A stretch of 64,000 nucleotides of DNA from Escherichia phage EK5 (PQ805429.1); one strand, 5' to 3'. Counted from the stretch's first letter, positions 36,713 through 59,676 are shown. Numbers and translations: made by a program. Notes: generated by a model not told the origin, from the letters alone.

Positions 36713-39493
36713 TCATTTAGAAGGCATCTCAACACGAAGGTCAATCCATCTTCCAGAAGGGATATCAATTGGTTCACCATCCACCACACCATCTATTACA
36801 TTACTTGCAAAAGAAGGAACTCCCTCATGGGTTCGATGGTAAGTTTTCAGAGTAATATCACCTTCTTCATCAACTTCATAATCAACCCAAAGAAGAGGTA
36901 ATCCGTTAGAGTTCTGAGGAATAGAAAAACCACCGTCATTACCACCCCAAGAGGCATCAGAGTTAAACCCTAAGACTCCTGAGATTTTATAGACACCAAC
37001 ATCTAATCTTTCGGTTGTTGCTCCTTGGGCTTGGTCATTAACTTCAGAAGACCCGTCAGATTTTAGTTTGACTATAGGCGATGCAATCTTAACAAAACCA
37101 TTAACATCTACGGTAGTGTTCAAATCCCTTACTAAGAAGTCACGCCAGTTTGTGATTAAAGAGGGGTCACTAGTCCTTTGTCTATAGCGAGGGGCTTCAT
37201 ATGTGATAGTAGAGAACCCTATTTGGGACCAGTTACCTCCACGACCACCTTCAGCAATAGTCATTATCTCCGCATATGTGAAGGGTGCACCATTACCTCC
37301 CGGAAAAGGTGACGAGTCCCCGCTGTAGAATCCAATACCAGTTGGTAAATCATCACCACCGTAGTAGACTGAGGAACCGTACTGACAATGCATTGCCCCT
37401 AGTTTTTCAGAACCTTCGGCTGGAGTCTTCCCTCCTGTACCACCACTTATTACCGGCAAAGCTATTCGAGAAGAGTCGGAGTTATTGAAATACCCCCAAT
37501 CTGCATCTGTAATAAAGAAGGTATGTTCTCCAGAACCATCTAAGAGCTTAGTGTCAGTTGAACTCTGGATAAGTTTATCAACTTTCAGATTGACACGAGC
37601 AGCAGCTTCAGATATAGCTCCCGTACCACCTGACCCTATAGGGATTGGAGCTGTATTACCCTCTGTTGTTTGGTAGACAAAAGTGCCCTCATTACCAAGC
37701 ATTAGCCGGTAATTTTTATTGGGGGATTGTATTGCAGTATATCCGCTTATAGTTGAAATAGCACCAACACCAAGATTCTCCCTAGCTTCAGAAGCTGAAG
37801 TAGCTCCTGTACCACCCGATTCTATAGCAAAAGGTATAGTGTTTGAATCTGACTGGTTTATCAACTTAAAACTACCACTGTTTGCGAGCCGTATTTGTTT
37901 ACTCCCATCTGGAGTACTCATAGAGCTGTAAAGATTATCACCTTCCCCATTTATGGCATGAAATGTTTGTAAGTTTAAAGAAATTCTAGCATTACCTACA
38001 TCACTGGCGCCTGTACCACCTTGGGCAACAGATAGAGGAGTAGTTAATCCGTTAAGAGAGGTGATATCTGAGTTTGCCCCGGATGCCGCTGCACCAACAT
38101 TAGCAGCTGTGAGGACTACGTTACCATTAGCATCATCAGGAGCTTTTCCATTTACTGTTACAATGTAAGGAATCTGAGATTGAACACGCCCTTTGTAATT
38201 GGAATCCTTATCTGAGTCAGGAGAGCGGATAGCCTCACCACCAGTCCAGTCGGGAAGTCGAATGCTAATAAAATTAGTAGAATCTGCATCAGTTATACCA
38301 TCAGCCAGCTTACCCCAAGAGAAATATTGTCTAGCACCACCCTGCCACTCTGTCTCTGAGACAACAGGAAGCTGTCCACTAATAAGAGATGGGCCTAAAT
38401 CTAGAGCAGACTCTTTTGATACCAAACGACCATCGGCAGGAAGAACTCCTGGGTAGGAGATATTCTTAGTTGGGTCATAAGGGAACATCACCATCTCACC
38501 AAGATACAGAGATGGGTTTCCTGTTGGAATGGTAATATCAATGTTACCACTTGAGTCTGGAGAGCGAGAGTTAACAGTAAGGATTCTACCTTCAGTCTTA
38601 ACAGGAGTTAATGTTTTGTTAGAAGCAACAGTATAAAATTCATACTTAGTAGCTTCCCAAACTAAGACCTTCTCACCAACTTGGCGATATTGAGCGTCAG
38701 CATCAGCTTCTGCTTTAGATTGATATGTCTTGGTGGTTTTATCAAACTTGTCATTAATCTCTTGACGACTGTACTGAGCAACGTTCAGAACATTTCCTAA
38801 ACCTACCGTCTCTTTGTTAAGTGTTAGAGCAACCTCTCCATCAAGAGCTGGACCGCCGTTAATAGAGACAGAACGAACAGATGGGATTAAGTTAGCAATG
38901 TTATCTAGAGTAGTTTTGTGGACGGTATTGTCATCTTTGTCAACATAGAAACCTAAATCACCTAGCTCTGGAACACCTGTAGGTGCTGTATCCAAATCCT
39001 TAACAGAACCATCTTTTCCGGGATCACCTTCTGGAATACCTAAAGAGATTACACCAGTGTTAGGATTAAAAGAGCCAGTAGCCGGAGTTCCCGGAGGGAG
39101 AGTTGTTACATCAACAGACATTCCTAACAGAACATCAAGCTGATTCTGGACTTCAATGAGTTTCTGGTTAATCAGGGCGACTGCGTTATTTGCATCAGAT
39201 ACTGCTGCATTAGTCTGAGCAATCAAGCTCATCAGACGAGCATCTTGATCTTTAAAGTCCTGCTTAAGATCTTCAATATCTTGCTTCATCAGAACACCCT
39301 GTTGATACAGACGTTCTACTTCAGCGATCAAGTCATCAATTGTACCAAACTTAGATTCTGCTAACAGTGCCCAATATTTGGAGTCAGCTGCATATTCTGC
39401 TGCTTGCTTGTAAGCTCCGATAGAGCCTTCAGTAGCACCAAACTGCCCAACGTTATTCACTGCATCAGGTGCTTGGTTATTATAAACGATCAT
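36713..39493 (-). CDS. tail fibre protein with phage fibre repeats
   Basis: 926 aa; N-terminal coiled coil; four repeats of GGTGA(S/T)...AR.NLG. Confidence 0.65.
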   Translation of the reverse strand: MIVYNNQAPDAVNNVGQFGATEGSIGAYKQAAEYAADSKYWALLAESKFGTIDDLIAEVERLYQQGVLMKQDIEDLKQDFKDQDARLMSLIAQTNAAVSDANNAVALINQKLIEVQNQLDVLLGMSVDVTTLPPGTPATGSFNPNTGVISLGIPEGDPGKDGSVKDLDTAPTGVPELGDLGFYVDKDDNTVHKTTLDNIANLIPSVRSVSINGGPALDGEVALTLNKETVGLGNVLNVAQYSRQEINDKFDKTTKTYQSKAEADADAQYRQVGEKVLVWEATKYEFYTVASNKTLTPVKTEGRILTVNSRSPDSSGNIDITIPTGNPSLYLGEMVMFPYDPTKNISYPGVLPADGRLVSKESALDLGPSLISGQLPVVSETEWQGGARQYFSWGKLADGITDADSTNFISIRLPDWTGGEAIRSPDSDKDSNYKGRVQSQIPYIVTVNGKAPDDANGNVVLTAANVGAAASGANSDITSLNGLTTPLSVAQGGTGASDVGNARISLNLQTFHAINGEGDNLYSSMSTPDGSKQIRLANSGSFKLINQSDSNTIPFAIESGGTGATSASEARENLGVGAISTISGYTAIQSPNKNYRLMLGNEGTFVYQTTEGNTAPIPIGSGGTGAISEAAARVNLKVDKLIQSSTDTKLLDGSGEHTFFITDADWGYFNNSDSSRIALPVISGGTGGKTPAEGSEKLGAMHCQYGSSVYYGGDDLPTGIGFYSGDSSPFPGGNGAPFTYAEIMTIAEGGRGGNWSQIGFSTITYEAPRYRQRTSDPSLITNWRDFLVRDLNTTVDVNGFVKIASPIVKLKSDGSSEVNDQAQGATTERLDVGVYKISGVLGFNSDASWGGNDGGFSIPQNSNGLPLLWVDYEVDEEGDITLKTYHRTHEGVPSFASNVIDGVVDGEPIDIPSGRWIDLRVEMPSK

Positions 39494-39502
39494 ATTATCT
39501 CC

Positions 39503-40255
39503 TTATACACGAGAAGTACGAATACCATAAATATCAGGCAAGCTGCTCTGAAGTCGAGTCATGTTATTCGGAATTGCGATAGGTGAACCTGAGTACTCTT
39601 GTTTCTTATTCTGTTCTACCATTTCATCAAGGATAGCTTTTCCTAATGCTGACCATTTCTGAACACCATTATCATCTTGAACAAAGAGACAAGCATGACG
39701 TAGGGTGAAGTACAGAAGAAGTTCTGGTGCTATAGTAAGAATAGTACTAGTATCTGTATCTTCATGGAATTCCGGTGGGTCTGCATAATAGCTAAGAATC
39801 ACTGAGTTTTCTGCTGGAATCAAAGGGCTTCCATCATCAGGGTAGTACGGAGTATCTGCTTCGATGCTAGGGTAGAAAATGAAACGACTACCGAAACGAG
39901 CAAAGTTGACAGGTTGGTTATTCCAGTGAGATGGGTTAATTGTTCCATGCTGTCTACGATAGCTAATCTCTTCAGGAGAGGTTACTTGGAAGATTGTGCC
40001 ATCTTTGGCTCTCATCATCCATTGAGCTTCTAAGTAATCAGGAGGAATGTAAGCTACTCCATCTTTAATATCTAAATACACTTCTTTTTCCAGAGGAGGA
40101 ATACGTAAGTTACGATAAATCTCTTTCTCTGCAAAGTTAATAAAGTTTGGAATTTGATTAACAAATTCGTCATCGTCCCTATCTGCCCAGAGGGCCACGG
40201 CCTTCTTTAGCCACCCATAGGTATTGATGGGGTATTGAACATCTGGCATTGCCAT
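39503..40255 (-). CDS. virion structural protein
   Basis: 250 aa, RBS AAGGAGG, first gene after promoter motif and terminator. Confidence 0.4.
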   Translation of the reverse strand: MAMPDVQYPINTYGWLKKAVALWADRDDDEFVNQIPNFINFAEKEIYRNLRIPPLEKEVYLDIKDGVAYIPPDYLEAQWMMRAKDGTIFQVTSPEEISYRRQHGTINPSHWNNQPVNFARFGSRFIFYPSIEADTPYYPDDGSPLIPAENSVILSYYADPPEFHEDTDTSTILTIAPELLLYFTLRHACLFVQDDNGVQKWSALGKAILDEMVEQNKKQEYSGSPIAIPNNMTRLQSSLPDIYGIRTSRV

Positions 40256-45606: not shown

Positions 45607-47148
45607 TTAGTAGCTCTGATTCCATCTGCTTACGTTTGCCTCATACAGAGAAGCACTTCCGTAGCTAACGTCATGCTTAGAGCGACCACGATGTGTAACA
45701 GAGCACGCTGAATAGCGCATTGCATCCATTAAGTCATCATGTTCTTTAATAATCTTACCAACCTTACGGTGATATCTAGCTTTCTCTTCGAATAGCTTAG
45801 CGTTAGCGGCTGTGTTAAAGACTTTAAAGCGTCCACTCATCATTCTTTCTCGGATATCTGTGATTCCCGGTTCTACAAAGAAGTTCTTTTTACCATCCAT
45901 TCCAATTTTGTTGTAGAAGGTCTCACTCTGTACGTTAACTCCTGCATTCTTATAGAATTGAGCAACAGATGAACCACTACCTTTCTCAATATTGTCCGCA
46001 TCGTGCGGTAGGATGACAGGAATCCACTGACCACGACCATTAATAGCTGGAGCATGATACACTGGAGTAAAGCCACCTTCTTTATATGAGTCGTAAACAT
46101 AGATAGTATCCGTGTTTGCGTCGTAAGCTGTCCAAACAGCAGCAGTTGGGTGATCAATACCAATATCAATTGCACAGACACGTTTCCACGTATCAGGAAT
46201 TTCGAATGGTTCACATTTAATTGTGTCATCCGATACATCATATATCAAACCACTTCCTAACAATGGCATACCTTTCGAACGCATCTCTAACTGCCACGCT
46301 GGAATACCTTCAGTCATATCTTTTATATCTTGGTCAGTGATATGTCCACCTAGGTCTGCATGAGCATCCCACCAAGAAGCATTCTGGAAATATAGAGAAC
46401 CTGTGTTCTCATCCCCTTCACCTTTCATAAATTTATCTACCAGTTCAGTTAAACCGTTCTCTGGTGTAGCTGTAATTGTAACTAGACCTTTAGTTGTGAG
46501 TGTACGTGTGACGCACTGTGCGAATATAGCCATAGACTCGTATGGATCTTCTTCGTCTAACCAAATGTAGTCAACTGTTGCACCCATCAATGTGTGTTCA
46601 CCCTGTTGGGTTGAACGGAATTCTAATGTACTTAAACCGTCAAACTCTCCTCTTTCATTTTGATGTTTGATTTGTACGATTTGAAGTTTGTTACCATCTC
46701 GTTCTATCGTGTCAATGACGATAGCATCACGAGGAATGACACCTGTCCCCAATAAATTTGTATCCTTTCCGATAGGTGTACCAAACAATTCCTTTTGCAA
46801 TACTTTCCTTGTGGAATCCCCTGTAATACCAACTGCCCATGCTAAGATAGGTCTTTTAAATTTATATCCTGTCCACCAAGTTGGGTAGCGACCTGTGACA
46901 TGACAAGCAAACTCGTATGCCTCGCTATAAGATTTACCAACACGGTTCGCTGCACACAAGAATCTAAAGCGATGCTTCAATCCTGCTGCATAAAATTTCT
47001 TTTGGAAGTCATACGCCTTGAAAGACAAAATCTTATTATACTTCCTCCATTGGTCGCGCTCTTTCAACATATTCAATAGTGCTTTCTTTTCCTCTACACT
47101 AAGATTGTTACCAGTTAGAGCTTCATAAATTTGTTTATCTAATGACAT
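45607..47148 (-). CDS. terminase large subunit
   Basis: 513 aa; Walker A CAANRVGKSYS, Walker B IWLDEED, C-terminal nuclease-like CAIDIGIDHPTAAV. Confidence 0.85.
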   Translation of the reverse strand: MSLDKQIYEALTGNNLSVEEKKALLNMLKERDQWRKYNKILSFKAYDFQKKFYAAGLKHRFRFLCAANRVGKSYSEAYEFACHVTGRYPTWWTGYKFKRPILAWAVGITGDSTRKVLQKELFGTPIGKDTNLLGTGVIPRDAIVIDTIERDGNKLQIVQIKHQNERGEFDGLSTLEFRSTQQGEHTLMGATVDYIWLDEEDPYESMAIFAQCVTRTLTTKGLVTITATPENGLTELVDKFMKGEGDENTGSLYFQNASWWDAHADLGGHITDQDIKDMTEGIPAWQLEMRSKGMPLLGSGLIYDVSDDTIKCEPFEIPDTWKRVCAIDIGIDHPTAAVWTAYDANTDTIYVYDSYKEGGFTPVYHAPAINGRGQWIPVILPHDADNIEKGSGSSVAQFYKNAGVNVQSETFYNKIGMDGKKNFFVEPGITDIRERMMSGRFKVFNTAANAKLFEEKARYHRKVGKIIKEHDDLMDAMRYSACSVTHRGRSKHDVSYGSASLYEANVSRWNQSY

Positions 47149-47217: not shown

Positions 47218-47691
47218 TTAACTCTCGTCCGCTTCCTCCCCCTTTTCAGCGTCCTCAGAGTTGTCTTCTTCTGGAGGCATAACGTCGATACCAAGTGCTC
47301 CAGTCAAGAAGTCCTTGATTTGTGCATTCAATGATTCTTCGTTGATTACATTCTCTTCCTCAATCTTAACTTCAACAGAGGCCGCCTTAGGATATACCAG
47401 ATCTGCAACTTTTGATGCAGCCTTGAATCTAAGATCAGGTGGAATATTAGGATCTTCGTAAATTTGAATTAACACTTCATCAGGAGACAAATGACTTGCA
47501 GCAACACGGTCCAACATTAATTGTGTCAGTTTACCTCTACTACCTCTGGGTCGTCCGAATTTATTTCCCTTTTGAAACTTCCCATTGCTTGGGTTCATAC
47601 CACGGCTTTCGAGTTCTTCCGTTACTCCGGGTAATCTTCCTGTAATCTCAGCTACCTGTGCAGGCGTGAGTTCTCCGTTTTCTCCAAACAT
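47218..47691 (-). CDS. putative terminase small subunit
   Basis: 157 aa upstream of terminase large subunit; basic GRPRGSRGK block and acidic C-terminus. Confidence 0.4.
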   Translation of the reverse strand: MFGENGELTPAQVAEITGRLPGVTEELESRGMNPSNGKFQKGNKFGRPRGSRGKLTQLMLDRVAASHLSPDEVLIQIYEDPNIPPDLRFKAASKVADLVYPKAASVEVKIEEENVINEESLNAQIKDFLTGALGIDVMPPEEDNSEDAEKGEEADES

Positions 47692-47715
47692 TTTATACTC
47701 CTTCTACATTATCAA

Positions 47716-47742
47716 CAACACAAAAAGCCTCCCAACGGAGGC
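47716..47742 (-). terminator. rho-independent terminator
   Basis: Minus strand GCCTCC-GTTG-GGAGGC followed by TTTTTGTGTT. Confidence 0.6.
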
Positions 47743-47747
47743 AAATA

Positions 47748-48380
47748 TTACTTACAATCACCAACGGACAGGTTAAACATCTTACCAAGAGCGATCGTCT
47801 CACCTTCCCACGGAAGTTCTACGCCCTTCTCTTCCTCTAAAAGAATAGAGCCGTCGACCAAAAATTTTTCGTAGTCTCGCAGTGCGTCGTCTACTAGCTC
47901 ACTCTTGTGAATCCACGTAATTGTTTCTGTACCATCCTCTTCGATTCGAACATCACGATGCCATTCATCTTTGGAGGTAATGTAATCATGGAGCATTTCA
48001 TATTCAGCTTCTTCAATCATCTCAATCATTGCGCGAGCATAATCAGGGAGGTGATCATGTTTAGTAGATTCATATTCAACTACTTCCAGAGTAGAAGGCT
48101 TAGCCCGTGCAACTTCTTCAAGTACTTTTGAGCGATCTTTGTAGTAGTTCTCATATTTATCACCAATAGTACCGACTTGAAGTCCACGGTATTGTTCTAC
48201 TAAACTCATCATATCTTTCTTCTCCGTAATAGTTGGTTTAAGAATACTTCCACTATATAAATCTTGTACAGCTAGTCCTGAAATATTTCCCATAGTTTCT
48301 AAATGCTGTAAGCTACAACCGGAGCGGCACAGCTGTGAATTGTACTCGTTAAGGTCCATCGCTTTGATTAAATTATTCAT
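47748..48380 (-). CDS. hypothetical protein
   Basis: 210 aa, first part of minus-strand block. Confidence 0.45.
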   Translation of the reverse strand: MNNLIKAMDLNEYNSQLCRSGCSLQHLETMGNISGLAVQDLYSGSILKPTITEKKDMMSLVEQYRGLQVGTIGDKYENYYKDRSKVLEEVARAKPSTLEVVEYESTKHDHLPDYARAMIEMIEEAEYEMLHDYITSKDEWHRDVRIEEDGTETITWIHKSELVDDALRDYEKFLVDGSILLEEEKGVELPWEGETIALGKMFNLSVGDCK

Positions 48381-48627
48381 CCATCTCTCCCTTGCTATAA
48401 TCTTTGTATGTTTCTACTTTGTAAGTGCGGAATGCTCTGAAGAAGAGCCAACCTAAGCTACTCACATCAATAGTAATATCGAAATCTGTTTCATCATCTA
48501 AGTCAACAAGTCGACCTAAACATGTAGCTTCCATCCCTTCTTCAGAGTCACTGTTGATTACGAAAGCGTATGTCTCTGTTCTGAACCGAGGCACCATCTC
48601 TGATAAAAAGTCTAATACTAAATTCAT
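48373..48627 (-). CDS. hypothetical protein
   Basis: 84 aa, first gene of minus-strand block. Confidence 0.4.
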   Translation of the reverse strand: MNLVLDFLSEMVPRFRTETYAFVINSDSEEGMEATCLGRLVDLDDETDFDITIDVSSLGWLFFRAFRTYKVETYKDYSKGEMDE

Positions 48628-49732
48628 AATTCTTCTCCTCTGAATAAGAGTATAAAGGGCACATCATAAGACCTACCCGTAAAGGCCACCTCACATTAAC
48701 ACCCGTGAGAATACCTGTATTCATTTTCGTAGTCTTCTTCAGAGAAGCTACCGTATTCATCTTCTGTCATACATCCCTCTGATAAAGTTAAGACATAAAG
48801 GGGACGTCATCTTTGATGACTACTTCACATTAAGGCACCCCCATAAAGGCCATGTCACGTTAAGGCCTATCCATCCATGTGCTGTGTTTAAGCTTACCAC
48901 ATTTACTACATCTCCAAGTGGACTTATAAAAGGTGTGAACTCTTTCATCCCCGTAAGCTTTGCGTATCCGATAGTACTCATGATCACATTTGAATTGCTT
49001 AATGATTAACTTAATTTTCCACATAAGTTCTCTTTCAACCTTATATATAAGAGTTTAAAATTCTGATTTGACCGAGTGGGGCTAGCCGCTTCCCGCGCGT
49101 TTCCTAAAAAGGGGGAGTCCTCATTTAAAAAAGGGTTATTGGCAATGCCTTTACCTTCCCTTTCAACGTTCCACCTCTCCCCGTGCCTACTCCCCGTAAT
49201 TATTCCCCCGTGTATACTACCCAATACATTAGCTACCCGTTTATTTAGTACCCCTTTAAAGAGTGAGAGAAAGGCTAGCACTGTATAAACTAGTACAGGC
49301 ACAATCATAACAGGTCTAATAATACCCATAAGTAATAGTCGCAGCTCCCCATAGTTTGAGTGTAAATAGTTTCAATAGTAATGATTATGAGTGCAATAAT
49401 GATGTATGTATTAATTAAGTGGAAAGATTATGTTTCTTTTAATTGTTTCTTTTATTCTTTCCTTTTTCAGCGTACATGAGCGTAGCGAATGGTCTTTGAT
49501 GTTTGAGTTAACTAATTATTTAAGTGGTATATTATTACCGCACTATCTTGCATGTTTCCCCGTGGTCTGTCCTGCGGTTGTTGTATCCCCGTTTGTCCTG
49601 GTCTGTTGGTCTGTTACCCGTAGTGTTATAAAGTAACAATAAGAAGTAAGCTGATTCTCTGAGTATGGAAAGTTTAGCAAATTAAATTCCTTTAGTTTTC
49701 AGTGAGTTATAGGAAAGTTAGAAAATAAATGG

Positions 49733-49760
49733 TTGACAGCCTTTTCCTTTATTATATAGT
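49733..49760 (+). promoter_or_regulatory. sigma70-like promoter
   Basis: TTGACA-16 nt-TATAGT, about 45 nt upstream of ATG 49805. Confidence 0.5.
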
Positions 49761-49804
49761 TGCGATTGTAGTTTGTAGTTTTCATCAACCATAAGGAATA
49801 TCAA

Positions 49805-50677
49805 ATGTCTAAAGTAGCAATTAACCACTTGAACAAAGCAAACGAAAGCCTTTCCTCTTTAGGCTTAACCGTTGGTAGTCCTGATGCGTGGATGGAAAAC
49901 GAAAGTGCACGTAAAGGATTCAAAAACTCAATCATGTTGGCTTGCTTGATCATCAATTCTACTGCGAACGCTTTACAGTGTGAAGATGAAAGCACGTTCA
50001 AAGAGAACGGTTTTACCGATATGCAGGACGCTATTAATTGCTACATTCAGGCTAATTTAGATAGCTGGAATCAGAAAGATTGGCCTGAGTCGTGCCGTGA
50101 TGTGAAAGCTGAATTATCCCGCTTGTCTGTCATGGTTGAAGCATGGAACAAGAAAAACAAGAAACAGCCAATCAAGCCTACTGTTGCAAGTAAGATTATG
50201 AAGTCTGTTAATCTGGCAAGTTATGCACTGGTTGCAGCTATTGGTGTTAGTGCACTGGTCACATCTCTTTCTGATAAGGCTATCGCTAGTCCTACTCCTG
50301 CAACTGATGCCGCTGATGTTTTCGCTAGTTCCATCAATAAGGGTTGGATGATTTGCAACGGTGCGGATAGTGATGGAAGTACTATTGTATTAAAAATGAA
50401 GTTTAGCAACGTAACTAATGATGGCGTTCTCTTTCAGTCTAAGACACTAGACAATCAGCCTAACAATGATCTAGTTCTCAAGCGCACCGATAGTGACTCG
50501 GATATGGTTACATTTGGCACTGTACAACGTTACGAAGACGTTAAAGCTGTAACCAATCTAGTGAGTTATGGTCCGGTTAATGAGTCGATGATCGCCACTA
50601 CCGTTTATAATAACGCTGATAACGCTGTTTATACCGTTCACGTTAATTTAGCCAACTGCATTAAGGCTAGTAAGTAA
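49805..50677 (+). CDS. hypothetical protein with internal TM segment
   Basis: 290 aa; hydrophobic LASYALVAAIGVSALVTSL. Confidence 0.5.
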   Translation: MSKVAINHLNKANESLSSLGLTVGSPDAWMENESARKGFKNSIMLACLIINSTANALQCEDESTFKENGFTDMQDAINCYIQANLDSWNQKDWPESCRDVKAELSRLSVMVEAWNKKNKKQPIKPTVASKIMKSVNLASYALVAAIGVSALVTSLSDKAIASPTPATDAADVFASSINKGWMICNGADSDGSTIVLKMKFSNVTNDGVLFQSKTLDNQPNNDLVLKRTDSDSDMVTFGTVQRYEDVKAVTNLVSYGPVNESMIATTVYNNADNAVYTVHVNLANCIKASK

Positions 50678-50701
50678 ATAACCTATTTTGGGAGTGTAAA
50701 A

Positions 50702-50953
50702 ATGGCTATCAAAGAAATTAAGTTATCTAATGGCTTTTCTTGTTTTGTTGGTGGAAGCTCTATCCTGTTTAATACACTTGATGGTCAGATAATCTTGCCT
50801 GTTATCACTTTTTGCAGGATGGAATATCAGCCTCTTAAAGATTGGCTAGCCTTTGCTGATTTCGAAATTACCCGCGATGATTTCAGATCAATCTATATTG
50901 ACGGTGATTTGTCGCTGGCTAACCTGCTTAATCATGGTCTGATTGGGGGATGA
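50702..50953 (+). CDS. hypothetical protein
   Basis: 83 aa, RBS GGGAG. Confidence 0.4.
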   Translation: MAIKEIKLSNGFSCFVGGSSILFNTLDGQIILPVITFCRMEYQPLKDWLAFADFEITRDDFRSIYIDGDLSLANLLNHGLIGG

Positions 50954-51159
50954 TACCAATGGGAAATGAAACTATCGCGCTAATTGATACGCATAATTAC
51001 GGTGGCGTTACGTTATCCTTTGATGAATCAGCCGACGTTGGCTATTTGTCTTTTCTTTCCAAAGGTGAGATACAAAATATACGCTTTCCTATTGTCTGTT
51101 TAGTGCAAGATTATATAACCGTTGGGAAGTATTTAGCCCAACGCGGGATTCTCCTGTAG
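50950..51159 (+). CDS. hypothetical protein
   Basis: 69 aa, ATGA overlap. Confidence 0.4.
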   Translation: MIPMGNETIALIDTHNYGGVTLSFDESADVGYLSFLSKGEIQNIRFPIVCLVQDYITVGKYLAQRGILL

Positions 51160-51315
51160 CTGGAAGAAGTGGAACAGATTAGCGTAGCATTTTTTGGTGA
51201 GGATAGCAACCAATGATTCATGATTATTTTTGGCGTTGCTTGTTCGTTGTTACAGTGGCGTTATTCGTCGCTGATATGCTTTATTCTTACATTCTCTAAC
51301 TAAAGGTTTATTATC

Positions 51316-51681
51316 ATGGGTGTTATCAAGTTTGTAGTGAAAGTATTTGTAGGCTTCTTTCTGGTTGTTCTCCTGTTAGGTGTCCTGCTGTCATCTATGG
51401 GTAGCGTTAAGGCTGCAACATTTTCCCCTGATACGGTTGACGGTTTACAGTGCACCTATTTGATAGAAAACTATGAAACTGGTAAAAAGTCACCTAAAGT
51501 TATTATTTTACATGTGAATGATTTCGAACATGTACAATCATACGATAAAACTATTCAACTGGTAAATGAAACTACCGGTAAACAAATTACGGTGGATCAC
51601 TTGATGCGCTCATCGTTGACGCTCTTTGATGAGTCCATGAATGAAATGGCATCCGGTAACGGTCAATGTGTAAATCCATAG
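51316..51681 (+). CDS. exported protein (signal peptide)
   Basis: 121 aa; N-terminal FVGFFLVVLLLGVLLSSMGSVKA. Confidence 0.45.
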   Translation: MGVIKFVVKVFVGFFLVVLLLGVLLSSMGSVKAATFSPDTVDGLQCTYLIENYETGKKSPKVIILHVNDFEHVQSYDKTIQLVNETTGKQITVDHLMRSSLTLFDESMNEMASGNGQCVNP

Positions 51682-51757
51682 GCTTAATCTTTCTCCTGTA
51701 TTGTGCCGTAGTCATGCCTATGGTCATAATTTATCTGATTCTCTAATCCTTCCTGTA

Positions 51758-51784
51758 AGCCTCCTAGTGAGGCTTTTCTCTTTT
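51758..51784 (+). terminator. rho-independent terminator
   Basis: AGCCTC-CTAGT-GAGGCT followed by TTTCTCTTTT. Confidence 0.65.
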
Positions 51785-52589
51785 ATGAGGTGATTGTATG
51801 CCTTACTCCCTTTTAGCTCGTTGTGATGCGTTTTAGGCCGCTAAATATCGCTTTACAAGCCGTTTTCTATGATGTATCGCGTGCGCCTGCTCTTTTACCT
51901 TCCTATAGTGAAAAAGTTTAAAATAATTTGCTTTACCCTATTGCAACCTCATCTGATTAGCGTATACTTCATTTCATCGGGTACGATGTAAAACATACAA
52001 GGCAAGAAATTGCCCCGCTCTTTAAAAATATGATTTGTCTTACGGGTGGCGGCGACGTCATTACTATAAGGCGCTCAGTTAATCGGTAGAATTGATTCCT
52101 GATTCATACGTGACGCAGGCGGACAATAAGCAATATCAATAAGCCTTATTTGTTCGATACTTTCAAAAGATTAATGCTTGAAAGCGCACTAGATTCCCTG
52201 AAAGACAAATCAGACTTATCATCTTGCCCTTTCGCATAGATTCACGCGAGATAAGGGAAAGGAATTAAAAGAAGATGATAAAAAGAGTTGCAAACGTGGT
52301 TAAAGTAGTCCATACTAACCACAAGTTAGCAAAACATCGCTAACTAGTTCCCAAATCAACGTATCGCGGGAAAGGTGGCACATAGTGCAGCGATTAGTTC
52401 AGGTGTAGGCGGCCTGTTAATGAATCAGTAAGCCTTCAATGTGACAGTGATTAGCAGACACTTTAAAAGGCTAAACGCTCTTTAACAATATGAGTCATAA
52501 GTTAAGCCTCACCGCTTAATCTTCAATCAAATAAAGCTGATTGATATATCCTCCCAATAGCGGGAACGACGAAAAAGATTAAAAAGCGG

Positions 52590-52618
52590 TTGACAGCGAA
52601 AACAACATGATTCATAAT
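52590..52618 (+). promoter_or_regulatory. near-consensus sigma70 promoter inside ORF-free region
   Basis: TTGACA-17 nt-CATAAT. Confidence 0.5.
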
Positions 52619-53541
52619 GAGCACTCACTAAGCAAATCATCGCTTCAGTGAAAAGCGTAACAACGGCTAACAGTTGCATAGTGTGAGAAAGCACACTGAT
52701 AGATTTACCGCTCTTTAATAATTTAAACATTCTCCTATATCGGTTGAATATGCTTGATGATAATAACCATCGGAAAGCATACCAGATAAAACGGCGTAAA
52801 ACTCCCTAAATTATCAGGGTAAACAGTTTTACATTCCCTTACTGGAAACGTCACCATTGATAAACGGATTCATTGAGTACACGCAAAGACTTGAGCTAAT
52901 CGCCCACGGTTAAGGGTAGCGGCGGTCATTGCTAACACGGTGCTACAGTGAAAGAAGTTAATCAGGGTAGGCAATCCCGACGAATTAACGCTCAATTGAG
53001 AGCGGCGGGGAGTGGTTAAAAAGTGGCAAATTGCTATTTAACAATAAGGTTTAGTGTGAACGTTTACAATGTGAACGGCTTGAGATTCATCTTATGATGA
53101 AAGTACATAGTCGGTTTATGTAGTAAACTTGCCGAAAGATATAAAACGTCGGAACATTAGACGGTCAATGACTCTTTCGCAATAGTATCCCGTAGTGGGC
53201 GATGACTAGCGATTGAGAGTTGATATAAAAGGATAGGCGAGAGCGAAAGCAAAGTAAACGATATTGCCGACGGTTACAATAACGTAACTAATTAGAGTCG
53301 GACGCACTGCCTTATTGTGATGATTGATCATCGCTATCAGGTCGGCTTCGTTTATAGCGACTAATTAAAGATACCAGATGAAACATCACGGATAAGGGGG
53401 CGGCAAGGTTAACTCCTGATAAGACCGCCCCGCTTACCTATAACTACTTAACAACGAGTGGTTATAGTTAAGTTAATAGTGACTTAAACAAGCTCATAGA
53501 GAGCGGGGCAATAGCGCCCTTACAATTGAAAGGTGAATATT

Positions 53542-54441
53542 ATGGCTAAAATCTTTACTCTGGTTAACGAATCCGGTTTTAATGCTCTGGCTAACAACAT
53601 TCGCAGTAATAACGCGGCGATCAAACAAGATGTTTCTAACTTCCTGTTAGGTCATTTGCAGCACTTTCGTAGCAACGGTAAGAAGTTAGATGTATTGCAG
53701 GCGGCGGTTGACTTCCTGTTAACCGAACGTTTCCGCGATATGGATGTTATTGCCACCGCGATTACTTTCTTAACTCCTATCAAGTTTAACACCGATGCGG
53801 CAAATGGTCGTAAAAAGTGGATTAATCTGGAAGGTGAGGCGAAAGCTAAAGAAGATGCGAAAGAAGCGCAAATTAAGGCCAAAATGGAACAAAACCGCGC
53901 TCGCTGGTCAAACGCTTTCGAAAACTTTGCATTAGGTCGTGCAATTGAAGTGGATAATCCTAACTTCTACAAAGGTTGCAATGACAACGTGGCGGCACAC
54001 CTGCAAATTCCGGCGAAAAACAAGGAAGATTTTAATCAGGATATTTACGCTTTGGTTGAACGCTTGAATGCAATCCGTATTGAAGCCAAATTACTGGCTG
54101 ATGAGCGCAACGGCGCAACCAGCGATAACACTATCGCCCTGAGTGAAGAAGTTGGGAAGGTTAAAAAGTCCTTTGATTCACTCATCAAGAAAATCACGGC
54201 CTCGACGGTAGCGATCTCGGATGATTATCTGATGAACGCATCAAGCAAGGAATTAGAATCACTCGATTCATACGCTGATGAAATGGAAAAGACTGTTGCA
54301 GCTATGCAGGAGAAGTTAGAAAGTCTGCGCGGTCGTATCTCTTCAACGGTTGCTACCCGTAGCGAACAAGCGGCGAAAGCAGAAGAGGAAGAAGTATTGC
54401 GTAAAGCGGCTGAAATTATGGCGGCACGTCAAGCGGCATAA
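53542..54441 (+). CDS. hypothetical protein (coiled-coil C-terminus)
   Basis: Start moved to ATG 53542 after AAAGGTG. Confidence 0.5.
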   Translation: MAKIFTLVNESGFNALANNIRSNNAAIKQDVSNFLLGHLQHFRSNGKKLDVLQAAVDFLLTERFRDMDVIATAITFLTPIKFNTDAANGRKKWINLEGEAKAKEDAKEAQIKAKMEQNRARWSNAFENFALGRAIEVDNPNFYKGCNDNVAAHLQIPAKNKEDFNQDIYALVERLNAIRIEAKLLADERNGATSDNTIALSEEVGKVKKSFDSLIKKITASTVAISDDYLMNASSKELESLDSYADEMEKTVAAMQEKLESLRGRISSTVATRSEQAAKAEEEEVLRKAAEIMAARQAA

Positions 54442-54464
54442 GTAAGACAATTTAAATAAACATA

Positions 54465-54499
54465 AGGCGCTATCTTAACGGGTAGCGCCTTTTCTTTTA
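54465..54499 (+). terminator. rho-independent terminator
   Basis: AGGCGCTA-loop-TAGCGCCT followed by TTTCTTTTAT. Confidence 0.65.
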
Positions 54500-54552
54500 T
54501 CAGTGCATTGATTCAGTGCATTAATCAAAGAATCTAATTAAAGGTGACGATC

Positions 54553-54771
54553 ATGTTAATTACACATACCACGATCTATAGGAATCTTGTCAACGGTCAA
54601 CATTACCGACTATCTAAAAAGTATGGCGTTGAATGTAAATGTGTTATTACCGGTGAATGGTATCCGTCGCCAATGAAGATTGAAACGTTGGAACGTGAAG
54701 CGATCAGCTATATTATCACGCAAGAAACAACGTTAGGTCGTATCTTAAGAAAGTTGGGATTGAGAAAATGA
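54553..54771 (+). CDS. hypothetical protein
   Basis: Start moved to ATG 54553. Confidence 0.4.
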   Translation: MLITHTTIYRNLVNGQHYRLSKKYGVECKCVITGEWYPSPMKIETLEREAISYIITQETTLGRILRKLGLRK

Positions 54772-54992
54772 TATTCAGTAGCAATTTTGGCAAGTGTCCT
54801 ATTTGTGAGAAACATCGCAGCACGGGAAACCATCGCAAATGTAGTAAGATATTACAGCGCCAACGTGATAACAAACATTGGGATACTGTACACACTAACC
54901 AGCGTAAAGAAGAAGTTAGGAAAATGGCTGTTAAAGCGTCATTTGCTCAATCCACCCGTATTGAACACATTCAAAGGTATCAAGCATTATGA
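54768..54992 (+). CDS. small basic Cys/His protein
   Basis: 74 aa; CPICEKHRSTGNHRKC. Confidence 0.4.
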   Translation: MIFSSNFGKCPICEKHRSTGNHRKCSKILQRQRDNKHWDTVHTNQRKEEVRKMAVKASFAQSTRIEHIQRYQAL

Positions 54993-55198
54993 TCACTAAC
55001 ATTTCAGAATTTAAGAAAGCACCTTCCCGCTTGTTAGGCCGTCGTGTTGTATATCTTTACAGCAATAAAGGTAAATGTACAACTGGACGAATTACAACGG
55101 TGAGTAGTGCTAACAAGAAACTGTTAAAGTTATGCGTAGCTATGGATGACGGTACAATCCTGCTACGCAGTTGGAAATCGTTTAGTTTACTAGATTAA
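54989..55198 (+). CDS. hypothetical protein
   Basis: 69 aa, ATGA overlap. Confidence 0.4.
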   Translation: MITNISEFKKAPSRLLGRRVVYLYSNKGKCTTGRITTVSSANKKLLKLCVAMDDGTILLRSWKSFSLLD

Positions 55199-55267
55199 GT
55201 TATTTGTTCAAGCCTATCGCCTTGATGGGCTTGCCCGATATAACTTATCACTGAAAGGAATAAGATT

Positions 55268-55711
55268 GTGGCTAAATCTAAAATCAGCATGAAGGGCGGG
55301 CGTTGTTTTGCTATCTCTGAACTAGAGAAAGAGAAACCGAAGGCAACTAATCACGTTAGTAAGCGTAGTTTAAAACGTCGTGCTGCAAAGGCTGAGGCTG
55401 AATCCCATGTTCCTTCCAGTGTGGCAAAGCGTGTAGGCCATCGTGTCCATCGGGCTGATGCGTTGTTGTTGGCTGATCATAAACGTTCTTTGTTAAAGAG
55501 CGGGGGAGCTAAAACAGAAGAGGAGAAGAAGTTAGAAATCTTCTGTAATGGTCGCACCCGTGGTAAACAGAAGTTTAAAGGTAGCACGAAAGACCCGCAG
55601 GCTTTCCCTAAGACAAGCCAGTGTGCACCTGATGTTTTCTACGCAGATAGTAAACACAAGTGGGGCGTTGAAAAATACATTGACCCCATCAAAGAGGCAA
55701 GGGTTAAGTAG
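55268..55711 (+). CDS. basic hypothetical protein
   Basis: 147 aa, GTG start after AAGGAA. Confidence 0.4.
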   Translation: MAKSKISMKGGRCFAISELEKEKPKATNHVSKRSLKRRAAKAEAESHVPSSVAKRVGHRVHRADALLLADHKRSLLKSGGAKTEEEKKLEIFCNGRTRGKQKFKGSTKDPQAFPKTSQCAPDVFYADSKHKWGVEKYIDPIKEARVK

Positions 55712-55791
55712 TAGGAATATAGCCCCCTCTTTTAGTACTATGACGCTCTTTCTGTAGCGTCGTGCCCTCTCCCCATTTGAAGCTTCCGCAT

Positions 55792-55814
55792 AGCCGCCTT
55801 TGAGCGGCTTTTTG
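55792..55814 (+). terminator. rho-independent terminator (first of tandem pair)
   Basis: AGCCGC-CTTTGA-GCGGCT followed by TTTTTG. Confidence 0.55.
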
Positions 55815-55875
55815 CGTTGCTGTAAGTGCATTTGCGAGTGTATTTATAGCAACGGTCATGTGTTGCTTTCAGGTT

Positions 55876-55901
55876 TGCCCCGGCTACGGCTGGGGCTTTT
55901 T
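55876..55901 (+). terminator. rho-independent terminator (second of tandem pair)
   Basis: GCCCCGGC-TACG-GCTGGGGC followed by TTTTTT. Confidence 0.65.
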
Positions 55902-55928
55902 TATGTCTACTGTATAGGAATCTATGAA

Positions 55929-56609
55929 ATGAAAGCAATTGTATTATCCTCAATCCTAGCTCTGTCCATAATGGCATCGCCTGTTTTTGCTAAAAGTGGA
56001 AACAATGGCAATGGCAATGGAGGTTGTGGTGTAGGTCAATCTACCAATGGTTGCGGTATCGGAGATTGGTTTAAAGGTGAAAAAGGTGATCAGGGAGAGA
56101 AAGGCGACACTGGCGCTAATGGCATTGATGGTAAAGATGGCATTGATGGAGAACAAGGCGCTCAAGGTGAAAAAGGTGATTCTGGTGCAGATGGTAAGAA
56201 AGGCGAAACTGGCCTAACTGGTGCAGCAGGTTTGAATGGCGTTGACGGATTAAATGGCAAAAACGGTAAAGATGCAGATATGTCTGCCGTTAATGCTAAC
56301 GCCAAATCCATCAAAGCTCTGGAACAATCCACCAATAAACGTTTTGCTTCTTTGCAAAAACAAGTAGACCGTAACCGTGATCATGCCTCTGCTGGTATTT
56401 CTGGCGTGGCTGCAATGGCTAACATCCCGCAAGTAAGTCAAGGATCTGCTTTCTCTGTTGGTGCTGGGGTAGGTGCTTACGATGGTGAATCTGCTCTTGC
56501 TATTGGTGTTAGTGCTCGTTTCAATGAAAACTTAGTAACTAAAGCATCAGTGGCAATGACTTCAGAGAGTGACGCTGTTCTGGGCGCTGGTGTAAGTTAC
56601 GAGTGGTAA
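55929..56609 (+). CDS. collagen-repeat protein with YadA-type C-terminal anchor (trimeric autotransporter-like)
   Basis: Start moved to ATG 55929; signal peptide MKAIVLSSILALSIMASPVFA; ~22 uninterrupted G-X-Y triplets; coiled-coil neck; C-terminus ...ALAIGVSARFNENLVTKASVAMTSESDAVLGAGVSYEW matches the YadA anchor ending. Confidence 0.7.
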   Translation: MKAIVLSSILALSIMASPVFAKSGNNGNGNGGCGVGQSTNGCGIGDWFKGEKGDQGEKGDTGANGIDGKDGIDGEQGAQGEKGDSGADGKKGETGLTGAAGLNGVDGLNGKNGKDADMSAVNANAKSIKALEQSTNKRFASLQKQVDRNRDHASAGISGVAAMANIPQVSQGSAFSVGAGVGAYDGESALAIGVSARFNENLVTKASVAMTSESDAVLGAGVSYEW

Positions 56610-56616
56610 GATAGTG

Positions 56617-56645
56617 CCTCTCCCGAAAGGGAGGGGTGTTTCTAT
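56617..56645 (+). terminator. rho-independent terminator
   Basis: CCTCTCCC-GAAA-GGGAGGGG followed by TGTTTCT. Confidence 0.6.
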
Positions 56646-56719
56646 AAGCATCTTTTCGAGGGTGTTTATTGAAACAACAAAACAGGAGGTAGCAAGTTCT
56701 GATAACAACGGCACAGCTA

Positions 56720-57109
56720 ATGTTGACATTGACTATTTATTATGAGGCAGGGAATCAGCCAACCGCATGTAAGGCTTTAGTTGCGGATACCGTGATAAAT
56801 AGAATGGCCCAACGAAAACTGACCGCTGAACAGGTGATAAGACAGAAGAACCAGTTTGAGTGGATTCCGGTACTATTAAAACAGGAGAAACCTTATAAAC
56901 GTTATGTAAAGCTGATTCGTGATAAAAATCCGATGACTAAGCAAGCCATTGGAGAAAGCGAGCGACTTGCTAAACGTGCCCTTAAGAAGAATTATGTTCC
57001 GCTGTACAGTGGGACTTACTTTCAGAGTAAGAGCGAAGGGGTGCCAAAATGGTATGCCAATCCTATGTATTGTGGTGATTTAGTGTTCGATAATAGCTCT
57101 AGGGAATAA
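56720..57109 (+). CDS. cell-wall hydrolase, SleB/CwlJ-like (Hydrolase_2)
   Basis: IYYEAGNQPTACKALVADTVINRMAQ resembles the Hydrolase_2 N-terminal motif GEA..E...G..AVA.VI.NR. Confidence 0.55.
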   Translation: MLTLTIYYEAGNQPTACKALVADTVINRMAQRKLTAEQVIRQKNQFEWIPVLLKQEKPYKRYVKLIRDKNPMTKQAIGESERLAKRALKKNYVPLYSGTYFQSKSEGVPKWYANPMYCGDLVFDNSSRE

Positions 57110-57308
57110 TCACTAGTGCCAGATTTGACAAACTAAATTCCTTTATAAACCAACCACTTAGTAAATTTATCGAAAAAGATGGTAGTATTCTGGGACTATG
57201 GGTAATGCTCTGTATATAGACCCTTTGAAAATTTCTTAGAAAATAAGTTTACTAAATATAACTTACTTAAATAATATTACTTTTAATCTCTGATAAAGGG
57301 TAAATAAT

Positions 57309-57605
57309 ATGACTTTAGAAGTATATAAATTCCTTTTTGTAAGCTGTTTAACTATCAGCGTTCTAGGATTTATTGTTCTCAGAAACAAAGCAGCAAGCTG
57401 GGAAAGAATGTATAAATCCCTAGTTCGAGTGGATGAGATGTATAACGAGAAGGTTAAAGTAACACTCAACGATCTTATTATGCAAGTTGAAGACAGAAAC
57501 AAACGTCTTCAGAACCTCAATCATGAAGTGTTGCGACTTGCTCGTGCTAATGAAGACTTACGAGTGGCTATTGCTAAGCAGCAGGAGATTAACAGTGAAA
57601 GTTAA
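57309..57605 (+). CDS. membrane-anchored coiled-coil protein (possible holin or spanin-like lysis accessory)
   Basis: 98 aa; TM helix FLFVSCLTISVLGFIVL then charged helical region; next to hydrolase gene. Confidence 0.35.
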   Translation: MTLEVYKFLFVSCLTISVLGFIVLRNKAASWERMYKSLVRVDEMYNEKVKVTLNDLIMQVEDRNKRLQNLNHEVLRLARANEDLRVAIAKQQEINSES

Positions 57606-57831
57606 TATTAAATCTGATTATACAATGCTTCGATTAAATAACATGAAGCCGGGCGTTCTGTTTGAGCGTAAAGAATCCCTTTACATTAGAACCGACACAT
57701 TGTACGCAGACAATTATGTCAACTGTGTTGATGTGGTAACTGGAAAGCTCATGCCTTTTAAACGGGATGAAGTCTGCCAAGTACGTAGTGATCTCCACAT
57801 AACTAACATAGGGGCTAAGGATGAAGATTAA
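57595..57831 (+). CDS. small protein, paralog family member
   Basis: GTG start after AGGAG; shares family pattern with 57821, 58079, 60721, 62146, 62394, 62642. Confidence 0.4.
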   Translation: MKVNIKSDYTMLRLNNMKPGVLFERKESLYIRTDTLYADNYVNCVDVVTGKLMPFKRDEVCQVRSDLHITNIGAKDED

Positions 57832-58078
57832 TCTTGAAGTAAATGAACCGTCTTTGTGTGTTGGTGATCTCAAACTTGGAGATGTATTCCAAATCAGGGA
57901 AACACGAGCAGATTTCTACATGGTTGTTCAGCTATTTACCTCACAGATTGAAGAGACCAAGCCTTCTGATGGTGGTTGTGTCGTCCTTAGTCTAACAAAT
58001 AAGCAAGTCCTTAAGCTCAGCTCGAAAAGCAAGGTTGTTCTTCTTCATGATGTTGTTATTACTAACAAGGGTAAGTGA
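57821..58078 (+). CDS. small protein, paralog family member
   Basis: 85 aa; MKI..., L..GDVF motif. Confidence 0.45.
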   Translation: MKINLEVNEPSLCVGDLKLGDVFQIRETRADFYMVVQLFTSQIEETKPSDGGCVVLSLTNKQVLKLSSKSKVVLLHDVVITNKGK

Positions 58079-58297
58079 ATGGAAATTAAAGTAGTTGATT
58101 ATCCTAAATATGCAAATGCAGAAGACGTTAAAAGTGGTGATGTTTTCTCTTACGATAGACGTTTCTGGCTGATGTTAGAAGATAAAACTCCTGATGGTTT
58201 GTGTAAGGCCGCCGATCTGAACAGTGGTTCTGTTGAAGTCTTCGGTTTATCAACCACTGTTATGCCCCGTCCTGATCTGTGTTTATCCCAAAAGTAA
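58079..58297 (+). CDS. small protein, paralog family member
   Basis: 72 aa; V.SGDVF motif, LNSGSVE. Confidence 0.45.
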   Translation: MEIKVVDYPKYANAEDVKSGDVFSYDRRFWLMLEDKTPDGLCKAADLNSGSVEVFGLSTTVMPRPDLCLSQK

Positions 58298-58305
58298 CAT
58301 CGACT

Positions 58306-58408
58306 TATAGCCCTTGTGTTTATCAGAGGGCTATGTGAGGGTGTTCCTCATTAACTTATTAATTCAGGCATATGCCACACCGCTAGGGAGAGCTTGCTCG
58401 AACATCCG
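58306..58408 (+). repeat. conserved intergenic element, copy A
   Basis: Hairpin TATAGCCCT...AGGGCTATGTGAG plus GCTAGGGAGAG...CTCGAACATCCG; second copy at 63584-63693. Confidence 0.5.
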
Positions 58409-58785
58409 GTGTTAGACTAAAACCTGTCAATTTTCGAAAGACTTTCTGATATGTAGGGGTACATATTGGTTTGGGATTCAGGAGACTTCCTAGGGGTAGG
58501 GAGTCTTCACCAGTTGGAATAAGAGATAGCTCTAGAACCTGAACTCTTAGGCAGAGAGGGTCGGCAATGAGTACGCGGTCAGAATTAGTCTACTGACTAG
58601 AGCTATCCCTTATATTAACTGGCAATAATGCCTCCACTAACAAAGAGAGATAGGTATGAAAGTATCAACCAAACGTATGAACCGCCCTGAACGTATGGAT
58701 GTAGTAGCTAATGGTGCTCTGAAACTGGAAGGCTTTTGGATTCATGCAATGTCAGCCATCCGTAACAAACAAGGCAATTGGACCT

Positions 58786-58995
58786 ATGCCGGTTAAGACA
58801 ACCCATGTGATAGGTATGCGAGAGATCATTCGCATTGCCTTGATGGAACACACAGAACGCAACATTCAACTAACGCAAATCTCTAAGTGTCTTAATTGCT
58901 CAAGAGATGTGGCTAAGGAGTTGATGTTTGCATTCCTGTATAATGCAGAAGACGAAATGCTACAGAATCATCTGATTCGTTGTGTTAGTCAATAA
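58786..58995 (+). CDS. hypothetical protein (possible HTH)
   Basis: Start moved to ATG 58786; terminator follows. Confidence 0.4.
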   Translation: MPVKTTHVIGMREIIRIALMEHTERNIQLTQISKCLNCSRDVAKELMFAFLYNAEDEMLQNHLIRCVSQ

Positions 58996-58999
58996 AGAG

Positions 59000-59029
59000 A
59001 GGCTGCCTTCGGGCGGCCTTTGTTGTTTT
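59000..59029 (+). terminator. rho-independent terminator
   Basis: AGGCTGCC-TTCG-GGCGGCCT followed by TTGTTGTTTT. Confidence 0.7.
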
Positions 59030-59073
59030 AATTAAGGGTCAGCTCTTACTTAAACTAACAAGAGGAAGCTAAA

Positions 59074-59667: not shown

Positions 59668-59676
59668 GGAATCATT

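Follow-up and report, generated by a model that had tools for sequence, protein, structure and literature searches.

The probable concatemer junction of Escherichia phage EK5 and its single-orientation CCC(G/A)T array, a candidate signal for end processing and packaging

The region studied here, positions 48628-49804 of Escherichia phage EK5 (PQ805429.1), belongs to a stretch of 64,000 nucleotides (nt) that was analyzed as a whole and is called the window below. It carries the short motif CCC(G/A)T in a dense array of one orientation and, almost certainly, the two ends of the phage genome joined through one terminal repeat. Megablast of 48300-50100 against deposited phage genomes returned 97 records at 86-95% identity, nearly all of them Escherichia/Shigella Kuravirus phages; the closest matches of the window are Kuravirus genomes (phiEco32-like, Gordonclarkvirinae), and by sequence similarity the window is that of a Kuravirus coliphage. 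The flanking genes agree with the phiEco32 map. To the left, on the minus strand, lie the large terminase, a putative small terminase just upstream of it, and the homologues of phi32_5 and, beside it, phi32_4; to the right, on the plus strand, the homologue of phi32_128, for which no Pfam match was found, is the first early gene at that end. The order gene-1/terminase side, repeat, gene 128 is shared by ShigP1, 4E8, YF01 and others. No RNA match was found by Rfam in 47500-51000, and no tRNA in the region.

The original prediction, made from the sequence alone, described the region as a divergent control region with no convincing coding sequence, to the right of a first minus-strand gene starting at 48627. 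A conserved gene of 54 amino acids (aa), the homologue of phi32_1 and SU10_01 (gene 1), is in fact encoded on its minus strand, so the first minus-strand gene does not begin at 48627. The protein has the pattern C-x-H ... C-x2-C, with C13, H15, C39 and C42 invariant, and no Pfam or NCBIfam match. Its open reading frame (ORF) is conserved in 10 of 11 relatives, its substitutions by codon position (99/62/158) show a third-position excess, and it is annotated in deposited genomes as SU10_01, ES17_1 and 4E8 g001. Three other long ORFs, which run over the repeat or the AT-rich part, 49006-49329(-), 49076-49288(+) and 49430-49636(+), were rejected as genes, being partial or missing in relatives.

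Genome ends were first suspected here because several deposited records, namely ES17, SGF2 and Ptacy1532, begin or stop within the region. The genome of phiEco32 is linear (77,554 bp) and its first and last 193 bp are identical. Both of its end fragments align colinearly to the window at ~90-91% identity, in reverse orientation, and the homology to the experimentally mapped repeat of phiEco32 is full-length, with edges matching at 49084 and 49276. At the homologous place, YF01 has an annotated direct terminal repeat of 193 bp and 4E8 one of 206 bp; repeats of 192-193 bp have been reported for 30 related phages, and T7-like cutting of concatemers for the group (PMC9965538). The ends of SU10 are blunt (PMC4281155), and a T7-like strategy of concatemer packaging has been described for the group (PMC9965538; PMC4281155). 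The window has no second copy of the repeat, which is what an assembler would leave after collapsing the two ends into one; the assembly is circularly joined.

From this homology we conclude that the region is, with very little doubt, a concatemer junction, in which two genome ends are fused through a single 193-bp repeat, together with an early promoter and gene 1. Virion DNA would be linear with the repeat at each end. In replicating concatemers, the single copy would join the right end (early genes and their promoter) to the left end, which consists of gene 1 followed by the terminase genes. Since the region would be such a junction, its left and right halves would lie at opposite ends of virion DNA. 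The earlier description holds insofar as the region is mostly non-coding and cis-acting, but the region is a pair of fused genome ends and not an internal divergent switch. Three of its components were already on record for this group: the terminal repeat, the conserved element inside it and the early promoter. The features of the locus are collected in Table 1.

Table 1. Features of the EK5 junction region and its flanking genes (window coordinates)
Feature	Position	Strand	Basis or remark
Large terminase	45607-47148	-	phiEco32 map
157-aa gene, putative small terminase	47218-47691	-	Just upstream of large terminase
phi32_5 homologue	47748-48380	-	phiEco32 map
Variable spacer, two diverged modules of ~140-165 nt before small ORFs	48628-48859	-	Repeat families D1, D3, D12, D16
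Putative acidic mini-ORF, 24 aa	48696-48770	-	GAGGG ribosome-binding site
Gene 1 homologue (phi32_1 / SU10_01), 54 aa, zinc-ribbon-like	48860-49024	-	PHROG 7696, E=6.6e-17
Near-invariant block TTATATATAA..GTTTAAAATTCTGATTTGACCGAGTG	49041-49083		Just outside repeat, gene-1 side
GCT/AGC palindrome at repeat boundary	49081-49086		phiEco32 end mapping; predicted cut between 49083 and 49084
Direct terminal repeat, 193 bp, one collapsed copy	49084-49276	- (phiEco32 orientation)	phiEco32 ends
Most conserved element within repeat, AAAAAGGGGGAGTCCTCATTTAAAAAAGGG, with two AAAAAGGG half-repeats	49100-49135		Junction alignment
Array A, four CCCGT (49180, 49193, 49207, 49236) spaced 13, 14 and 29 bp	49179-49240	+	Inside repeat
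Second GCT/AGC, other repeat boundary	49274-49279		phiEco32 end mapping; predicted cut between 49276 and 49277
Non-coding segment, 69% A+T	49277-49556		Junction alignment; three near-invariant blocks
Array B, three CCCGT (49559, 49588, 49617), 29-bp period, interleaved with GTCTGT / TGGTCTGT	49557-49621	+	
Sigma-70 early promoter TTGACA-16-TATAGT, for gene-128 homologue	49733-49760	+	11/12 consensus positions
phi32_128 homologue, 290 aa, first early gene at right end	49805-50677	+	PHROG 36409; bounds junction

Eleven junctions were aligned and conservation was scored per column. The cuts that make the ends would, by homology, fall within GCT/AGC at each edge of the repeat; the cut at 49083/49084 corresponds to the right physical end of phiEco32 DNA and the one at 49276/49277 to its left physical end. 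The heptamer GGCTAGC is found at both edges and has just 3 copies on that strand in the 64 kb; its CTAG core is kept in relatives, and GAAAGGCTAG (49269-49278) is kept in at least 10 of the 11 junctions. Immediately outside the repeat, on the side of gene 1, the near-invariant block reaches a conservation of 0.89, versus 0.64-0.77 in the flanking genes, and 49041-49050 and 49053-49078 are each identical in at least 10 of the 11 junctions. This block may be part of the region that terminase recognizes and cleaves and/or promoter DNA of gene 1. Within the repeat, AAAAGGGGGAGTCCTCATTTAAA (49107-49129) is invariant and continues the near-invariant block 49041-49078 inwards, while the middle of the repeat, the site of array A, is less conserved. 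Both copies of AAAAAGGG in the whole window lie in the element at 49100-49135, which corresponds to the CCCTTTTTTA-10-CCCTTTTTTA repeat of SU10 (PMC4281155) and to the conserved 'positions 130-170' region of PMC9965538. The best candidate for a core terminase site is the ~90-bp near-invariant block that spans the edge at 49083/49084.

Two IMG/VR contigs of 88-90 kb (L028, 1-300; L032, reverse complement, 250-620) end ~70-340 nt from the 17-mer AAAGGGGGAGTCCTCAT. They are otherwise dissimilar in this part and have in common only this invariant 17-mer, with its GC-rich neighbour, and the element TACCCGTATTT...GAAAGGC, which sits at the other edge of the repeat. Because such dissimilar contigs share them, these two elements would be the oldest parts of the junction, and their presence suggests that the contigs are larger, undescribed relatives with the same end-recognition sequences.

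The iterated CCCCGT/CCCGT clusters on which the original prediction rested are real, although their coordinates had been given ~5-15 nt off. On the plus strand of the region, CCCGT starts at 48676, 48702, 48950, 49180, 49193, 49207, 49236, 49559, 49588 and 49617. These are 10 of the 30 copies in the window, against 0.37 expected for the 1,177 bp of the region from the rest of the window (Poisson P ~1e-11), and the opposite strand of the region has none. In 5000 first-order Markov simulations of the region, the count never rose as high as 10 (mean 1.4). The longer CCCCGT starts at 48949, 49179, 49192, 49206, 49558 and 49587, which represents 6 of its 9 plus-strand copies in the 64 kb. Window-wide, CCCCGT is not above chance (11 versus 8.3 expected); the signal resides in clustering and single orientation, and not in the total number of copies. 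The G and A variants of the motif are mixed within single genomes, the gene-1-side cluster reading CCCAT in 4E8 and CCCGT in MLP3, and since they coexist in this way we define the motif as CCC(G/A)T, or CCCRT. The region has 13 copies of CCCRT versus 1.4 expected, all on one strand. They are spread over ~950 bp, within the terminal repeat and both of its flanks, and stand on both sides of each predicted cut.

The array persists in relatives whose sequence has diverged. At the place of array A, 4-5 copies are found in phiEco32, SU10, ShigP1, XT32, Bas93, 4E8 and EP335, and three ACCCAT with one ACCCGT in TH42, MLP3 and Bas88; in these last three and in SU7, several of the CCCCGT copies have the form ACCCAT. 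Array B is represented by 2-4 copies in every relative examined. Copies were counted in four relatives with complete genomes, 4E8, MLP3, Bas88 and EP335, the last of them from another genus. Their homologous 1.2 kb contains 15-17 CCCRT where 1.2-1.5 would be expected, with 0-1 on the opposite strand. In 4E8, EP335 and MLP3 the region has an identity of just ~67-80% to the window, and parts of the Bas88 junction cannot be aligned; the bases between the CCCRT cores differ among relatives while the copies persist. Over the 11 junctions, the spacings form two sharp classes, 33 of them at 12-16 bp and 46 at 26-32 bp, with 29-30 bp dominant. Number, orientation and spacing are thus kept in EP335, 4E8, MLP3 and Bas88, and in this comparison the array has the signature of a selected, direction-specific binding array and not of base composition. 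A G-quadruplex in array A was considered and dropped, as the G-runs are too far apart in the MLP3 group. No mention of an oriented CCCRT array, or of its parallel in T7, was found in the literature searched, which did not include the original phiEco32 papers (Savalia 2008, Pavlova 2012).

Between the repeat and array B lies the A+T-rich segment, whose near-invariant blocks are at 49347-49363 (CCCCATAGTTTGAGTGT), 49385-49411 (TTATGAGTGCA.TAATGATGTATGTAT) and 49459-49473 (TTCCTTTTTCAGCGT). T-rich 12-13-mers stand in tandem at 49431-49465, and 49351-49480 ranks in the top three for A+T content among the 120-nt stretches of the 64 kb. The ORFs of this segment have no tblastn match in relatives. 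GTCTGT occurs at 49565, 49601 and 49609, as the original prediction had noted, and the rightward promoter it had pointed out at 49733-49760 is both real and conserved. From -35 to -10, phiEco32 has exactly the same promoter sequence and 9 of the 11 junctions have almost the same; the promoter is annotated at this place in 4E8 and SU7, and lies 45 nt upstream of the ATG at 49805. A sigma-70 promoter before the last early gene has been reported in phiEco32 and SU10 (PMC4281155).

The placement of an early/late switch point in this region did not survive comparison with relatives. The homologues of the adjacent minus-strand genes, SU10 coding sequences 1-3, are classed as early (PMC4281155), and a late (gp36-type) promoter motif, TAATGTAGA, is found ~1.3 kb further left. 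Located at 47703-47711(-), 12 nt upstream of the 157-aa gene, it differs by one mismatch from the phage-sigma element tAATGTAtA of phiEco32; judged by its homology to promoter P6 of phiEco32, it marks where the early/late boundary really lies on this side. A phage-sigma (gp36) promoter in the region itself was also sought and rejected, the sole one-mismatch match to tAATGTAtA being at 49223-49231(-), with the mismatch at a position that differs in phiEco32, so that no promoter is conserved at this site.

Taken together, the observations are best explained if the junction and its array form a cis-acting signal that gives direction to end processing and packaging, a reading to which we assign a probability of about 0.45. 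A phage protein would bind the oriented CCCRT array, and the bound array would mark the genome ends and give direction to the processing and packaging of concatemers. For the array taken by itself this role is a tentative proposal, made by analogy, for which the odds fall somewhat short of even. It is favoured because the copies lie in and around the repeat, flank both cuts, are strictly oriented and parallel those of T7. Several results weigh against it. The repeat edges show no hairpins or cruciforms (z-scores of -0.2 to +1.9). Array B is 280-340 bp from the nearest cut, yet just 115-175 bp upstream of the early promoter. The 88-90-kb contigs keep the terminal elements but have just 1-2 CCCGT, phage 7-11 lacks both the array and the invariant element, and the analogy with T7 would transfer architecture and not function. 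The putative small terminase, moreover, has no match among Pfam, NCBIfam or PDB sequences, its single-sequence AlphaFold model (predicted local distance difference test score, pLDDT, 57) is too poor for a fold search, and its first 135 residues show no group-specific substitution between phages with CCCCGT and those with ACCCAT.

This last comparison was part of a search for the protein that reads the array, in which all ORFs of the window were set against four complete genomes, two whose repeat carries CCCGT (EP335 and 4E8) and two whose repeat carries ACCCAT (MLP3 and Bas88). Between these two motif groups the entire early block (50.9-63 kb) is different, while the terminase subunits show the same degree of conservation in each. 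As G and A variants coexist within single genomes, the test is uninformative for the small terminase rather than contrary to it; by the same token, the assignment of an early protein as the reader by co-variation collapsed, the variants coexisting and swapping between clusters. The assignment of the 157-aa protein as small terminase comes from its gene position and one HHpred result (PMC9965538), and an IMG/VR pattern scan with the protein found close relatives only. A second candidate, a 103-aa helix-turn-helix protein of the early block at 61826-62137(+), matches Sigma70_r4_2 (E=1.6e-7) and PHROG 323 ('D5-like transcriptional regulator'). Most Kuravirus records have this protein at 88% identity or more and phiEco32 at 63%, and tblastn gives no match in MLP3 or Bas88. 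The protein found no support as the array reader: MLP3 and Bas88 hold 15-16 copies of the motif without it, and the phiEco32 orthologue is just 63% identical though the phiEco32 arrays match those of the window.

The original prediction offered an origin of replication or a regulator-binding array as the function of the repeats. Its core, a real motif array in a cis-acting region, stands. An origin would use arrays A and B as iteron-like sites for an initiator around an AT-rich unwinding segment at 49350-49480, with the promoter activating it. The 69% A+T of 49277-49556, the rank of 49351-49480 among the top three 120-nt stretches, the T-rich 12-13-mers, the near-invariant non-coding blocks and the direct repeats on either side of the AT-rich segment all fit such an arrangement; in T7, too, origins pair an AT-rich stretch with a promoter, and two secondary origins, phiOL and phiOR, lie near the genome ends. 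The cumulative GC-skew minimum at 49-50 kb has also been counted in its favour, but it falls exactly at the switch in gene orientation and is therefore not independent evidence. The conserved core is just 5-6 nt long with differing flanks and a spacing of 12-16 or 26-32 bp, unlike 17-22-bp iterons, and other copies lie in and past gene 1, far from the AT-rich segment. No initiator-like family is found among the neighbouring genes, the literature search yielded nothing on a phiEco32 origin, and T7 holds the same kind of array while its primary origin is elsewhere. An origin is the main rival reading, but in our judgment an improbable one.

Less probable still is that an early phage protein or a host protein binds CCCRT to tune the promoters at the ends, or the entry or protection of the first kilobase. 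The proximity of array B to a conserved early promoter, the classification of both sides of the junction as early in SU10, and the early helix-turn-helix protein encoded by the phage would suit this explanation, as would the probable first entry of the right end, which carries the early promoter, by analogy with T7. Most copies, however, are in the repeat or near gene 1 and not beside a recognizable promoter, the helix-turn-helix candidate fails simple co-occurrence with the array, and the early shut-off factor of phiEco32, gp79, targets RNA polymerase and not DNA (PMC8948821). It could finally be argued that the motif has no function and is a by-product of a pyrimidine-rich strand and old local duplications; it is short, the plus strand is pyrimidine-rich, and the copy at 48949 is accounted for by the coding of gene 1 and lost in the MLP3 group. 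With 10 copies reached in 0/5000 composition-matched simulations, and number, orientation and spacing persisting though the flanking bases have diverged, we regard this as very improbable.

The CCCCGT at 48949 codes for part of the residues AYGD of gene 1. To the left of gene 1, the variable spacer is the least conserved segment of the junction (mean column identity 0.48, with insertions and deletions among relatives). It includes CCCRT copies at 48676, 48702 and 48840, and four copies of the 16-mer RTGANRTSSCCTTTAY on the minus strand, a pattern found nowhere else in the window. The direct repeats reported here by the original prediction are present, TAAAGGCCA at 48680 and 48844 (its sole two copies in the window) and CACATTAA at 48692 and 48826. 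It should also be noted that, in 48640-48870(-), each of the diverged modules has TTAAYGTGA, GGCCTTTAY and ATGAYGTSCCCTTTAT ahead of a ribosome-binding site; one module stands ahead of the phi32_4 homologue and the other ahead of the 24-aa mini-ORF, and the number of upstream modules differs among relatives. The 16-mer family resembles the invariant element within the terminal repeat (AATGAGGACTCCCCCTTTTT).

Some further observations concern the neighbouring genes. The phi32_5 homologue is labelled 'ABC transporter' (PHROG 12176) in many records, without Pfam or NCBIfam support, and is weakly conserved among relatives (34-49% identity x coverage). An early ORF of 121 aa at 51316-51681(+) is called 'terminase' in several relatives via PHROG 13168; it begins in a long hydrophobic stretch and Pfam gives no match for it, so the label looks like an annotation artefact. 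The 1.85 kb at 51682-53532 have no long ORF and are unannotated also in 4E8, EP335 and Bas88. A sigma-70 site close to consensus, TTGACA-17-CATAAT, lies within them at 52590-52618, as do hairpins resembling terminators at 51705-51775; this stretch is probably the phiEco32/SU10 spacer said to hold three early promoters. The early block at 50900-63000 is mosaic, many of its small genes being 80-97% identical (identity x coverage) to EP335 and 4E8 and missing or below 55% in MLP3 and Bas88; for structural and terminase genes, the similarity to each of the four genomes is roughly the same.

For annotation, the true genome ends, an extra copy of the 193-bp repeat and a small gene belong here, and the region is not to be read as an internal regulatory switch. 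The phiEco32 group is under development for phage therapy. The CCCRT array, the ~90-bp invariant block at the repeat edge and the GCT/AGC edges themselves are concrete, testable candidates for the signals that would direct cutting and packaging.

The closest known counterparts are the ends of phiEco32, SU10 and YF01, which share the homologous 193-bp repeat, the flanking genes 1 and 128, the early promoter and the AAAAAGGG half-repeats; here, in contrast, the repeat occurs once and in mid-sequence, the assembly being circularized. As in cosB of lambda, with its R sites, and in pac of P1, which has 4+3 hexamers, several short repeats flank a cleavage point; those repeats give packaging its direction. 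They lie within ~100-160 bp of the cut and have known binding proteins, whereas the copies described here extend over ~950 bp. Iteron origins such as lambda ori also combine direct repeats with an adjacent AT-rich segment and a nearby promoter, but the core here is far shorter, the spacing is not iteron-like, and the copies reach into the terminal repeat and a gene.

The most instructive comparison is with T7 (NC_001604), of which 1-1000 and 38900-39937 were scanned. Its 160-bp terminal repeat contains 3 copies of CCTAAAG, with 8 more just after the left copy of the repeat and 2 just before the right copy, giving 13 copies near both ends, of which 11 are distinct as the 3 in-repeat copies count at each end; near the ends, the opposite strand has none. 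The CCTAAAG spacing is mostly 13 bp and also 25-26 bp, and the promoters phiOL and A1-A3 and the first early gene then follow. These arrays were reportedly named SRL/SRR by Dunn and Studier in 1983, and we know of no function for them. Both phages thus have one short motif in one orientation within the repeat and both flanks, with early promoters next to it. The 13-bp register of T7 matches the short Kuravirus class, and the two sets of spacings (13 and 25-26 bp versus 12-16 and 26-32 bp) are similar without being the same, the dominant Kuravirus spacing of 29-30 bp being a point of difference. The Kuravirus right end also matches T7 in its layout: the repeat and its array come first, then AT-rich conserved DNA, another array, the strong promoter and the early genes. 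The motifs themselves, CCCRT and CCTAAAG, have no sequence similarity, and the relationship is one of analogy and not homology. T7 also has its own RNA polymerase, whereas phiEco32-like phages use the host polymerase with a phage sigma factor. In T7, pausing of RNA polymerase at the junction initiates packaging (PMC3276506), and in T7-like phages there is one copy of the repeat per concatemer junction, where terminase cuts specific sites while the repeat is duplicated (PMC10438801). The parallel between the arrays suggests a shared logic. By this analogy it is conceivable, if on balance unlikely, that oriented arrays in a regular register over the repeat and its flanks are a general and required trait of genomes with T7-style direct terminal repeats, built from independently evolved motifs. 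If so, the Kuravirus array would be a tractable case, as its non-coding copies outside the repeat are easy to mutate, and it could reveal, for example, wrapping of DNA around a ring-shaped small terminase or the setting of packaging direction.

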